Shown one piece after another: positions 5,939-23,880 of a stretch of DNA of 24,000 bases (its first letter is position 1; each line of letters begins with the position of its first letter). Origin of the DNA: Alkalihalobacterium elongatum (lineage in GTDB: Bacteria > Bacillota > Bacilli > Bacillales > Bacillaceae_F); assembly GCF_019024285.1 (NCBI RefSeq), contig NZ_WMKZ01000008.1, positions 1 through 24,000 of the forward strand. The letters run 5' to 3'. The notes below the pieces were generated by a model. That model saw only the letters and a list, made by a program, of their open reading frames with translations. It made no database searches and had not been told where the DNA came from. Both the position numbers and the translations under genes were made by a program.

Positions 5939-5993
5939 ACGTCAATATCGGAGTACTAAAAGCTTGTAAGTATGATTTTATGAGGTGATAATT

Positions 5994-6344
5994 GTGGAAT
6001 GGAATGATTTAACAGAAGGTGCAAAAGCAGTATTCGAACAAACTCGTAACTTAAAGAATGATAATATTCAAATTGTTGAATTTGAAGTTGGATTTGTGCA
6101 GGATTTTGAAACTGAAGGCGGAAATACATATACAGTATCCATCCAAGAAGAGGACTACGCTAGTATTAAAAGATATACCCAAGAGAATGAATATGGTGAA
6201 AAGTATCATATGGCAAGAAATAAGAATATTGTAAAGCTCATTCTTTTAGAGAACGGTAAGATACCAGATAACTTATCTGAGTTTCCTGTATTCCGCCAAT
6301 ATAAGAATGATGCAATTGTTAAAGAAGTAGAAACAAATGAATAA
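5994..6344 (+). CDS. Hypothetical small soluble protein (116 aa from GTG 5994; 119 aa from GTG 5985). No family recognised.
   Basis: Open frame with RBS GAGGTGA (5982-5988) 5 nt before the GTG at 5994. Composition is acidic and hydrophilic with no TM segment. It lies between spoIIIAH and accB, which are adjacent in B. subtilis as I recall. Confidence 0.6.
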   Translation: MEWNDLTEGAKAVFEQTRNLKNDNIQIVEFEVGFVQDFETEGGNTYTVSIQEEDYASIKRYTQENEYGEKYHMARNKNIVKLILLENGKIPDNLSEFPVFRQYKNDAIVKEVETNE

Positions 6345-11852: not shown

Positions 11853-12736
11853 TTGATCTAAAACAATTTCTACAAAAAAGTAAATTAGAATTAGAACAAC
11901 AATTACCAAACTGCATCAGCGGATTAAAAGCCCCAGCAACTTTAAAAGAAGCGATGGCTTATTCATTGTCTGCTGGTGGAAAACGAGTGCGTCCTGTTTT
12001 ATTATTAGCAACTCTTCATGCTTTTAATCGCGATGAAAAAATTGGAAATAATATTGCATGTGCAATTGAAATGTTACATACGTATTCGTTAATCCACGAT
12101 GATTTACCAGCGATGGATGACGATGACTTGCGTAGGGGCAAGCCAACTAATCATAAGGTTTTTGGTGAAGCGATGGCTATACTCGCTGGGGATGCTCTTC
12201 TAACTTACTCGTTTCAGTTAATTTCTGAAATACCAAACGAGTTTGCAACAGATAGTATGAAAGTTAAATTAATTCAAGAACTGGCAAAAGCAGCGGGTCC
12301 TGAAGGAATGGTAGGTGGGCAAGTTGCCGATATGGAAGGGGAAGGAAAAAATTTAACTCTAGAGGAGCTGGAGTATATTCACTATCATAAAACGGGTGAT
12401 TTACTAACATATTCTGTCTTGGCGGGGGCTATCCTTGCAGGGGCACAAGAGGAAGAAATTGAACAATTACGTCTGTTTGGGAAAGAGCTAGGCCTTGTCT
12501 TTCAAATCAAGGATGACATCCTTGATATAGAAGGAGATGCGAATATGATTGGTAAGCCAGTCGGTAGTGATTCTGGTAAGGATAAAAGTACATATCCTTC
12601 ATTATTGACGATGGATGGAGCAAAAGAAAAATTATTCGAGCATACAAATAGAGCAAAGGAATATTTATATAATGTAAAGCTTGAAAACTCATTATTAATG
12701 GCAATAACGGACTATATTGTGGAAAGAGATCATTAA
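11849..12736 (+). CDS. ispA: Farnesyl diphosphate synthase (polyprenyl synthetase family)
   Basis: First and second aspartate-rich motifs [20 protein letters not shown] and FQI.DDILD. The GTG start overlaps the xseB TGA stop (GTGA). Confidence 0.95.
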
Positions 12737-12781
12737 TTTGTTAGTGGCGGAAGCTTGTTATATGGCTGACAGACATTTTCA

Positions 12782-12810
12782 TTGAGCGATTTTCTATCTA
12801 GTGATATAAT
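12782..12810 (+). promoter_or_regulatory. Near-consensus sigma-A promoter internal to the operon, positioned to drive the large ncRNA
   Basis: -35 TTGAGC (12782-12787), a 17-nt spacer, an extended TG (12802-12803) and a perfect -10 TATAAT (12805-12810). The predicted transcription start is near 12817. I saw no terminator between the ispA stop and this promoter. Confidence 0.65.
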
Positions 12811-12816
12811 AACTCT

Positions 12817-13420
12817 ACAAAGAGAGTGGTGCAGTATTCTAGTCGGCTCTCTATTCTTGAAGGCGGGGCTAAAAATCCGCCAAAGGGCACATCGATGAAG
12901 CTCCTTGTGTCGGCTTGAGGCGCCCAGCTTTGGGTCGGCGCTGGGTGTTAAGGTGTGGGGGCGATCCACAAAGGCATGTGGGCGTTGACCCTCACTCCGC
13001 GGAGGCCTTGTATTTACACTGTATGCGGTGCATACAAATGGTGTAATATGGGGTATGAACCTGCTAAGGCATGCTTGGGTAGTATGCCGGCAGCGTAGCC
13101 TGCCTTGAGTGGAGTTAGAGGGGATTATGGGAGTGGGTCTAAAGGTTGTCGGCCAACAACGTTTATTCCTTGTCCATATGAAATCTGCTCTGCAAAAGAG
13201 GATAAAAGAATAGCGAGGAGCTGCCGAGGAAAACTCCTAGACTGTTCGAAAGACATTTAAAGAGGATTGAAGTGTGGACTAAGTGGTAATCTAGTCTAGC
13301 GTTAGGTGACTGCGCTAAGATATGTTGAAAGGGAAACCACCAAAGCGGCGACGCTTCGGTACGTATCTGGGAAATCCTACTGGACCTAAGCCACAGCATT
13401 TACTCTTTAAATGACCACTC
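12817..13420 (+). ncRNA. ole: OLE (ornate, large, extremophilic) RNA candidate. Boundaries are approximate.
   Basis: The 769-nt gap has no + strand ORF and is visibly more GC-rich than the flanks. It contains many local helices, including a GNRA-capped hairpin. It has the diagnostic synteny ispA - RNA - 4-TM protein - dxs known for OLE RNA. I assigned the strand from the promoter and the co-orientation with flanking genes. I could not run a covariance-model search. Confidence 0.78.
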
Positions 13421-13505
13421 AGCTATACATATATACTAATGGCGTGTAAGTTGAGTCGTCTTTTGAACTTTGTTAAATTAAAAAGATAGGTGACAAAAAA
13501 TATAA

Positions 13506-14111
13506 ATGAAACACTCATTTATTAAATCCATAAATTGGAGTTTAGCAATTGCCGTTATCACACTTGTGTTAGCGGCTATTTTTTCAGTTATTTCTACGCT
13601 CTTATTGAGTGGTGTAACATGGGCTCTAGGTATGGTTATCGTATTTATTATTGTGTTAATTGGAATCTTTTTTGATACAATTGGTGTAGCCGCAACAGCT
13701 GCCAATGAAGGTCCTTTTCATGCTATGGCCTCACGAAAGCTCATAGGGGCGAAACATGCTGTTAAAATAACAAGAAATGCGGATCGTTTTGCAAACTTCT
13801 GTAATGATGTAATTGGTGATATCGCAGGGATCGTAAGTGGTACTGCATCTGCTTATGTTGTTCTCCAACTGTCTATACAGCTTGGCCACGGAGAAGGATC
13901 GTTGGACCAATTTTTTATTTCTGTTTTGTTTACAAGTGTAGTGGCTGCTTTGACTGTTGGTGGAAAATCTATTGGAAAAACGCTAGCTATTCAATACTCT
14001 ACTCCTATCATTTATCAGGTTGGTAGAATATTATATATTTTAGAGGTAAAATTAAAAATAACACTTTTTGTTAATAATGGTAAGAACGGAAAGCGTAAGA
14101 AAAAGAGATAA
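13506..14111 (+). CDS. oapA: OLE-associated protein A (small four-TM membrane protein with a basic C-terminal tail)
   Basis: 201 aa (about 21-22 kDa) with four hydrophobic segments and a C-terminal NNGKNGKRKKKR tail. It lies immediately downstream of the OLE-like RNA and upstream of dxs, as described for oapA. Confidence 0.72.
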   Translation: MKHSFIKSINWSLAIAVITLVLAAIFSVISTLLLSGVTWALGMVIVFIIVLIGIFFDTIGVAATAANEGPFHAMASRKLIGAKHAVKITRNADRFANFCNDVIGDIAGIVSGTASAYVVLQLSIQLGHGEGSLDQFFISVLFTSVVAALTVGGKSIGKTLAIQYSTPIIYQVGRILYILEVKLKITLFVNNGKNGKRKKKR

Positions 14112-16852: not shown

Positions 16853-16883
16853 GAGGGGGGACTTTTATTCCCCTCTATTTTTT
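16853..16883 (+). terminator. Rho-independent terminator after tlyA
   Basis: Stem GAGGGG (16853-16858) / CCCCTC (16870-16875), followed by TATTTTTT. Confidence 0.7.
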
Positions 16884-17041: not shown

Positions 17042-17140
17042 AATGAATATACAATTAGTGAATATAAGAGAGGCTTTTATTTCAAAAGCTGATTTTCACA
17101 AACTATATTGCTATATAAAAAATATGAGTAGGTGAATGAA

Positions 17141-17590
17141 ATGAATAAAGGACAAAGGCATATAAAAATTAGAGAGATCATAACAAATCAAGAAATAGAA
17201 ACACAAGATGATTTAGTCGAACAATTAAAAAGCTCAGGTTATAATGTTACGCAGGCTACAGTATCACGTGATATTAAAGAGCTACATTTAGTTAAAGTAC
17301 CAATGATTGATGGACGCTATAAATATAGCTTGCCTGCTGATCAACGCTTTAATCCATTACAAAAATTAAAGAGATCTTTAATGGATAGCTTTGTCAGTAT
17401 AGATCGTTCGGAAAATATGATTGTTATGAAGACGTTACCTGGTAATGCAAACGCGGTTGGAGCACTAATAGATAACTTAGATTGGAATGAAATTATGGGG
17501 ACCATTTGTGGTGATGATACCATATTAATCATTTGTAAACATAAAGAGGATAGCCCGAGTATTACTGAACGTTTCTTAGAAATGCTATAA
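17141..17590 (+). CDS. argR: Arginine repressor ArgR/AhrC. The ATG at 17141 is preferred over the tracked GTG at 17132.
   Basis: The sequence is very similar to B. subtilis AhrC from memory ([14 protein letters not shown]...[18 protein letters not shown]...[17 protein letters not shown]...[12 protein letters not shown]). RBS GTAGGTGA (17128-17135) lies upstream. Confidence 0.96.
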
Positions 17591-23406: not shown

Positions 23407-23880
23407 TTGCGAATGAGTATGCGGACTAATCTTATTTTATTAATGACTTTTGTATTTGGTGTTGTTGTTGGAGTTGTGATGGATAAAGATTGGTTAAGTG
23501 AACAACAAGTCCTATATTTTAATCAACTTCAATCTGAGAATACTTTATTAAAATCAGAAAGAGAAGGTTGGCTATCGTTCGTTGCTGAAGAGATGGGATC
23601 TACACCATTCTATATTGCATCAGAGGATGAGACTTCTAACAGTCTTGCCTTTTTGCTTGAAGAGATTGGTGCTGAAGTAAAGATGATTGAAAAAGGTGTA
23701 GTACCCATTCTAGAAGCTGATGGTATCCTCATTTCTTTAGGAAGTGAAATTTATATGGATTATGAAGGGCCTCATATGGCATTAGAAGCTATTCCAAGCC
23801 ATGAAATTGACATACAGAATTTTTATTTGTCGTTATTACGACTCAAAGGAGAAAATTATACTCATGAACATTCAAGCTAG
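23407..23880 (+). CDS. Membrane-anchored SteB/MctB-like (copper-transporter family, DUF3186-like) protein, short form
   Basis: N-terminal TM segment (LILLMTFVFGVVVGVVM) followed by a coiled-coil-like stretch (QLQSENTLLKSERE). This matches the N-terminal architecture of Rv1698/SteB-type proteins encoded after steA. RBS GGAGGG lies 6 nt before the TTG at 23407. Confidence 0.45.
   Translation: MRMSMRTNLILLMTFVFGVVVGVVMDKDWLSEQQVLYFNQLQSENTLLKSEREGWLSFVAEEMGSTPFYIASEDETSNSLAFLLEEIGAEVKMIEKGVVPILEADGILISLGSEIYMDYEGPHMALEAIPSHEIDIQNFYLSLLRLKGENYTHEHSS

Follow-up and report, generated by a model that had tools for sequence, protein, structure and literature searches.

The 24,000-nucleotide stretch of Alkalihalobacterium elongatum DNA analysed here (positions 1 to 24,000 of contig NZ_WMKZ01000008.1, assembly GCF_019024285.1; hereafter the window) almost certainly carries a full-length gene for OLE (ornate, large, extremophilic) RNA at 12810-13434 of the forward strand, together with the gene of its obligate membrane partner, oapA (OLE-associated membrane protein A), at 13506-14111. 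The RNA gene lies in a gap of 769 nucleotides (nt), positions 12737-13505, which separates the end of ispA at 12736 from the start of the next forward-strand gene at 13506. A preliminary description of this DNA had proposed OLE RNA for the gap, and this assignment is supported by the family model, by covariation among related loci and by the identity of the neighbouring protein.

When the whole window was scanned against Rfam 15 at gathering thresholds, exactly one match was returned, that to the OLE model (RF01071), and it lies on the forward strand only. With 516.3 bits it lies well above the gathering cut-off of 50 (E = 6e-149); it spans the whole model, positions 1-616 of 616, without truncation and is 625 nt long, the core inside the closing helix measuring 597 nt. 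The Rfam models of GOLLD, ROOL, HEARO and raiA gave no match in the window; these are likewise large, highly structured non-coding RNAs with unknown biochemistry, but they differ from OLE in hosts, genomic contexts and quaternary structures (nanocages instead of a flat dimer).

The Rfam consensus structure, which comprises 157 pairs, was transferred onto the window sequence, where 149 pairs are canonical. The same structure was then counted on a MAFFT alignment of 79 OLE sequences from related Bacillales, the set to which the conservation values given below refer. Standard pairs occupy 88.6% of the pair cells, a share that drops to 40-45% once the 3' partners are displaced by 1-3 columns. The preliminary description had proposed covariation in homologous regions as a check on its assignment, and such changes are abundant: both sides have changed in 119 of the 157 pairs, and none of 500 shuffles reached the observed pairing and covariation values on any measure. 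Among the individual elements, helix 2 (P5/P5.1) is 95.3% paired with 11 compensatory pairs, helices 7-8 (P8) are 88-94% paired with all eight distal pairs compensatory, and helices 17-23, which make up the 3' domain, are 92-100% paired with compensatory changes in most pairs. The closing helix, seven pairs that join the ends of the RNA, is absent from the Rfam structure line; it is paired in 98.7% of the cells and shows compensatory changes in five of its seven pairs. At the sequence level 194 of the 625 positions never vary and 241 reach a conservation of at least 97%, the invariant fraction being an upper estimate since the set is narrower than the whole OLE family.

Nothing that was observed speaks against the identity of the RNA, but some observations could be held against an intact, full-length one. 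P7 and distal P9 are poorly paired in the MAFFT alignment (helices 5-6 at 61-67% and helices 12-14 at 40-55%), and the window RNA itself has three non-canonical positions in distal P9, besides one in P7. The poor pairing most likely stems from misalignment of length-variable stems, and it is regarded as a limit of the alignment and not as evidence against the fold. The non-canonical positions would also be expected of a decayed or truncated OLE relic, or of a reduced form (variant 1 or 2) by which the full complex is no longer formed, and a short P9 that lacks the GGCC loop does occur in many related genera (Evansella, Salipaludibacillus, Alkalicoccus and Anaerobacillus). Such a fate is nevertheless extremely unlikely for the A. 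elongatum copy: no model position is missing, P7, P8 and a long P9 with its GGCC loop are present, and the nucleotides of the OapB site and of the kink-turn (k-turn) are intact. Moreover, identity to the nearest homologue is 91% over the RNA but about 85% over the 8.3-kb locus as a whole, which points to purifying selection. According to the criteria of PMC11332333 and PMC7936274 the window RNA is of the full-length type, and not variant 1 or 2, because P7, P8, the long P9 and the OapB site at the tip of P13 are present. Variant 1 (TANB77), variant 2 (RF39) and the short-P9 forms have the same conserved core nucleotides and are likewise linked to oapA; in the variants, however, P7, P8 and P9 are shortened or absent and the OapB site is often missing, whereas the window RNA has all of them.

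The gap itself is as conspicuous as the preliminary description had stated. Elsewhere in this tightly packed operon the genes lie between a 4-nt overlap (xseB/ispA) and 27 nt (nusB-folD) apart, the remaining spacings being 17 nt for folD-xseA, 3 for xseA-xseB, 25 for oapA-dxs and 4 for dxs-tlyA. The gene order reads nusB-folD-xseA-xseB-ispA, OLE, oapA (the 201-aa membrane protein), dxs-tlyA-ahrC (argR)-recN, which confirms the context of xseA-xseB-ispA, RNA, membrane protein and dxs that had been claimed; the ispA product is a farnesyl diphosphate (FPP) synthase (NCBIfam NF045485, 443 bits). The composition also shifts as described, the GC content rising from 0.33-0.43 in the flanking genes to 0.51 at 12800-13199, and the GC-rich run quoted earlier, GGCGCCCAGCTTTGGGTCGGCGCTGGG, was located at 12919-12945, where it corresponds to the P5.1 hairpin of OLE. 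The RNA does not fill the whole gap: 73 nt precede the Rfam match and carry the promoter, and the 71 nt that follow it form the leader of oapA.

Open reading frames (ORFs) in the gap offer another explanation, namely that it encodes small proteins. The preliminary description had listed two 78-aa minus-strand frames as the only ORFs, and at a threshold of at least 60 aa this holds (12733-12969 and 13163-13399); a shorter forward-strand frame of 51 aa with a TTG start (13105-13260) and a 75-aa minus-strand frame (13478-13705), which reaches the gap with its tail, had not been listed. The frames exist, but the two 78-aa frames and the 51-aa TTG frame overlap an RNA in which compensatory changes keep the base pairs, and substitutions that preserve base pairs indicate selection on RNA rather than protein level. 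The probability that any of these three frames accounts for the gap is negligible.

The 201-aa protein encoded downstream of the RNA is OapA, an assignment based on a sequence motif, membrane topology and synteny. Its DVIGD sequence (D101-D105) conforms to the DxxxD motif described as distinctive for OapA (PMC11332333) and is invariant in all 77 OapA homologues compared. In the same homologues the basic residues K78 and R90 are invariant, K83 is basic in 74, and R94 is always K or R. Hydropathy delimits four hydrophobic segments, at approximately residues 11-35, 38-63, 102-120 and 133-156, the first two of which merge and were split by eye; the protein with four transmembrane segments that had been noted beside the RNA bears the motif that defines OapA. 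Neither Pfam nor NCBIfam returned a family above threshold for the 201-aa protein, these libraries apparently being without an OapA model, and a PDB sequence search returned no relative of it. At a loose threshold the CNNM transmembrane domain (PF01595) appeared with E = 0.04 and 14 bits against a cut-off of 28.4. Membership of the CNNM family was rejected, as this score lies under the gathering cut-off and denotes a distant resemblance only. This agrees with the literature, in which a weak CNNM similarity is reported for OapA and OapA is described as the next-closest group to MpfA (PMC11332333). In the CNNM-domain Mg2+ transporters MpfA and CorB, which show this weak sequence similarity to the window OapA, the DxxxD motif is absent; OapA in turn has four instead of three transmembrane helices and no CBS or CorC cytosolic domains.

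The landmarks of the RNA and of the surrounding transcription signals are collected in Table 1. Several of them correspond to sites for which contacts have been described in other species. In the A-rich loop of P4, a dimer contact in cryo-electron microscopy (cryo-EM) structures (PMC12265935, PMC12286853), bases U61, A62-A65 and U67 are invariant. The P5.1 and P6.1 loops form an intermolecular kissing interaction (PMC12265935); across the set the P5.1 loop is invariant and the P6.1 loop is invariant except at 12972, and in the window RNA GGC of P6.1 (12973-12975) is complementary to the GCC in the loop of P5.1. In the cryo-EM dimer a symmetric kissing contact is made by the palindromic GGCC loop of P9 (PMC12286853). 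The conservation of these motifs suggests that the window RNA could dimerise as well. With regard to protein sites, UCGAUGA of J4a/5 and the partner strand AGG probably form the OapC-binding k-turn, as mapped by position onto the element of PMC9723947 (U84 and C85 of B. halodurans), and all of their bases are invariant (T83, C84, G85, A86, T87, G88 and A89; A142, G143 and G144). P13 is the primary OapB site (B. halodurans U498 and GUGA 501-504; PMC7936274), and both its tetraloop sequence and its bulged U are identical to those of B. halodurans OLE. P14.1 is a weak secondary OapB site (PMC7936274).

Table 1. Coordinates of the OLE RNA gene, its structural elements and the associated signals in the 24-kb window.
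Feature	Position	Strand	Basis
Proximal OLE promoter (predicted)	12782-12810	+	Consensus scan, 10/12 matches, TG present
OLE RNA gene, full-length	12810-13434	+	RF01071 match, canonical pairs, covariation
Closing helix, 5' strand GAGUGGU	12824-12830	+	Perfect pairing with 13414-13420
P4 hairpin, A-rich loop (GCUAAAAA within 12868-12875)	12862-12881	+	Sequence
J4a/5 UCGAUGA, bulged strand of putative OapC k-turn	12892-12898	+	Position-based mapping
P5/P5.1 hairpin, loop CGCCCAG at 12921-12927	12901-12947	+	Model, invariant loop (79 sequences)
Partner strand AGG of putative k-turn	12951-12953	+	Position-based mapping
P6/P6.1 hairpin, loop AAGGCA at 12971-12976	12952-12998	+	Model, covariation
P7 stem-loop, variable in sequence and length	13006-13053	+	Model
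P8 stem-loop	13061-13093	+	Model, covariation
Long P9 arm, palindromic GGCC loop at 13151-13154	13102-13202	+	Model, sequence
3' domain, multi-stem, nested in 11-bp helix 13254-13264/13403-13413	13254-13413	+	Model, covariation
P13 hairpin, GUGA (GNRA) tetraloop 13306-13309, single bulged U 13302	13297-13317	+	Model, sequence
P14.1 hairpin, GCGA tetraloop 13348-13351	13339-13360	+	Model, sequence
Closing helix, 3' strand ACCACUC	13414-13420	+	Partner of 12824-12830
UACAUA box, 5 nt after closing helix	13426-13431	+	Conserved, edge of sequence conservation
oapA, 201 aa	13506-14111	+	Motif, topology, synteny
First convincing intrinsic terminator downstream of OLE promoter, after tlyA	16853-16875	+	

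The experimentally studied OLE/OapA system of Halalkalibacterium (Bacillus) halodurans C-125 is the closest point of reference. The two systems belong to different species, but both hosts are alkaliphilic Bacillaceae. Shared features are the family model, the place in the operon (after ispA and before oapA-dxs), a promoter immediately 5' of the RNA, the GUGA tetraloop and single bulged U of P13, the GCGA tetraloop of P14.1, k-turn nucleotides U and C that are numbered nearly alike (83/84 in the window RNA, 84/85 in H. halodurans) and, in OapA, the DxxxD motif and the four transmembrane segments. The OLE RNAs of Clostridium acetobutylicum and C. botulinum, resolved as dimers by cryo-EM, come from anaerobes of another class and are shorter (577 nt); all four of their dimer-contact loops are also found in the window sequence.

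Upstream of the RNA a predicted promoter ends exactly where the Rfam match starts. It consists of a -35-like hexamer TTGAGC (12782-12787), a 17-nt spacer and an extended -10 element, TGATATAAT (12802-12810). The arrangement of a -35 hexamer, 17-18 nt and TGnTATAAT is found again, at a constant distance from the core of OLE, in nearly all of the loci, 74 of the 79 scoring at least 9 of 12; the TG extension is found in 73, and the -35-like hexamer reads TTGAGC or TTGTCY across loci. By these signals the site is predicted to be a conserved promoter of the sigma-A extended -10 type, from which transcription would start at about A12817. The Rfam OLE model itself appears to begin within this promoter, its first positions (consensus 'uaauau') representing the end of the -10 box and not transcribed RNA. 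In B. halodurans the equivalent proximal promoter increased the expression of OLE by a factor of more than 100; the RNA occurs there as one extremely stable species, with 5' ends close to where P1 starts (PMC3413148); it is about 630 nt long and co-transcribed with the upstream genes (PMC9723947).

No terminator was found between OLE and oapA, and since the first good one lies after tlyA, OLE-oapA-dxs-tlyA probably form one transcription unit. In the leader of oapA, a Shine-Dalgarno-like AGGTGA stands unusually far (12 nt) from the ATG, which is directly preceded by TAA (13488-13508), and in several relatives AAAGGTGA is comparably far from the start. This spacing may indicate weak or regulated translation of OapA.

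The shared transcript, the lack of a terminator within it and the distant ribosome-binding site would also suit a long structured 5' leader that controls oapA-dxs in cis and is no independent RNA. This explanation is very unlikely, as the OLE RNA of B. halodurans is a single stable species of about 630 nt that is bound by proteins and localised at the membrane (PMC3413148, PMC9723947, PMC12265935), and as sequence conservation in the loci compared ends right after the box UACAUA and does not extend to the start of oapA.

The UACAUA box is the sole new detail of the locus. It follows the closing helix by 1-9 nt in 68 of 76 loci, against a frequency of 1.5% in random 45-nt windows of the same loci. 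A text search of OLE papers gave no mention of UACAUA together with OLE RNA, which is weak evidence since figures are not searchable. Pairing of the box with the conserved CAUAUG at 13176-13181, a hairpin formed by it and a function as -10 box for oapA were considered by eye, and none of these was consistent across loci. One possible role, offered tentatively, is that of a sequence-specific signal for maturation or protection of the 3' end, which would part the very stable OLE RNA from the oapA-dxs mRNA, both of which would stem from one transcript begun at the OLE promoter. If true, such a signal would account for two products of very different lifetimes, a stable RNA and an mRNA, from one terminator-less transcript. 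The box is a lead and not a finding.

Relatives of the 201-aa protein were sought in one genome per species, which gave 80 loci, a few of them from Paenibacillus and the others from alkaliphilic and halophilic Bacillaceae; the H. halodurans locus is not among them. A profile search with the window RNA placed a homologue directly upstream of oapA and on the same strand in all 79 testable loci, the remaining one lacking any upstream sequence. Closest to the window are Alkalihalobacterium chitinilyticum, Alkalihalobacterium sp. APHAB7 and Alkalihalobacillus sp. BA299, with OapA identities of 90-92%; the identity of 91% given above for OLE applies to A. chitinilyticum and sp. APHAB7, that to BA299 being 89%, and the locus identity of about 85% refers to A. 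chitinilyticum and to mostly coding DNA. The host fits the OLE-bearing Bacillota, which are typically extremophiles or anaerobes, its nearest relatives being alkaliphilic and spoIIIA, spoIVB and spo0A being present in the window.

Some variation in the RNA was seen across these loci. Distal P9 with its GGCC loop (alignment columns 441-470) is lacking in Evansella, Alteribacter, Salipaludibacillus, Alkalicoccus and Anaerobacillus (loci L009-L012, L014-L019, L021-L032, L034-L036, L052 and L054), so that one of the four dimer contacts is missing there; the remainder of these RNAs is kept. A shortened P9 has been reported for 'variant 1' RNAs (PMC11332333), but the short-P9 RNAs seen here otherwise look full-length. 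Compared with the Bacillaceae set, the Paenibacillus RNAs (L064, L065 and L075) carry large insertions, which the alignment places in P8 and P9, in L075 also in the P13 region, and the longest measure about 735 nt.

Outside the OLE locus the window is ordinary Bacillaceae chromosome, with spoIIIAA to AH, accB, accC and an Asp23-family gene upstream and spoIVB, spo0A and steA downstream. Two forward-strand ORFs have no Pfam or NCBIfam family, one of 119 aa (5985-6344) between spoIIIAH and accB and one of 157 aa (23407-23880) after steA. Genomes with OLE also encode OapB (YbzG) and OapC (YbxF) and usually lack MpfA; none of these three genes was found within the 24-kb window. The arginine repressor gene ahrC/argR (17132-17590) lies three genes downstream of OLE, and ArgR is named a candidate OLE-binding protein in a 2025 review that cites unpublished data (PMC12265935). 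The linkage may be meaningless, the gene order being identical in Bacillus species that lack OLE.

In other species it is established that OLE RNA dimerises, binds OapA, OapB, OapC and probably bS21, resides at the membrane and is required by the cell to withstand ethanol, cold, high Mg2+ and poor carbon sources (PMC12265935, PMC10898510, PMC12286853). By analogy with H. halodurans and Clostridium, the A. elongatum RNA would have two sources, transcription from its own promoter and read-through out of the nusB-ispA genes. The transcript would be trimmed to release a very stable OLE RNA of about 600-630 nt, and read-through would continue into oapA-dxs-tlyA. The RNA would dimerise through the A-rich loop of P4, the kissing loops of P5.1 and P6.1 and the GGCC loop of P9, and would bind OapA, OapB at P13 and OapC at the k-turn in a complex held at the cell membrane. 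This complex would aid tolerance of short-chain alcohols, cold, excess Mg2+ and poor carbon sources.

What the complex does at the membrane can be modelled in more than one way. The preferred model, to which somewhat less than an even chance is given, is that OapA works as a divalent-cation device which the RNA dimer organises, controls and couples to translation and metabolism; it is suggested by the CNNM-like character of OapA, by the Mg2+ phenotype and by the reported anticorrelation with MpfA (PMC11332333). A membrane-spanning sensor or scaffold of mainly structural function, which carries out no transport, is a distinctly less probable model. It has also been considered that the OLE class is a ribozyme for some reaction at the membrane, with OapA, OapB and OapC as anchor and folding chaperones. 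The size, the structural complexity and the approximately 25% of near-invariant nucleotides are typical of large ribozymes (PMC11332333, PMC12265935), the invariant share in the 79-sequence set is 31%, and some of the most strongly conserved loops, P14a and P15, contact no known protein (PMC7936274). In almost 20 years, however, neither a reaction nor a substrate nor self-processing has come to light, products of splicing or cleavage were not seen (PMC3413148), and cryo-EM reveals a flat dimer with no evident active site (PMC12286853, PMC12265935), which makes a ribozyme improbable. The control of OapA as a cation device by the RNA dimer is retained as the preferred model, and the probability that these three models leave over is assigned to none.

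About 2,800 OLE genes have been catalogued in Bacillota (PMC11332333), and the one described here is an ordinary, canonical member of a known family in a canonical locus, of the kind that a default Rfam scan finds. The class matters in that it is among the largest and best conserved bacterial RNAs of unknown chemistry; this copy adds little to it. The analysis provides the correct annotation for the 769-nt gap and for the neighbouring 'hypothetical' 201-aa protein, and the locus can serve as a positive control, OLE having been recognised from raw sequence in the preliminary description. A small comparative result accompanies it, namely a promoter that is kept in almost all of the 79 loci and a UACAUA box that marks the 3' edge of the conserved RNA; together, these two elements could guide the mapping of 3'-end formation in OLE RNA.

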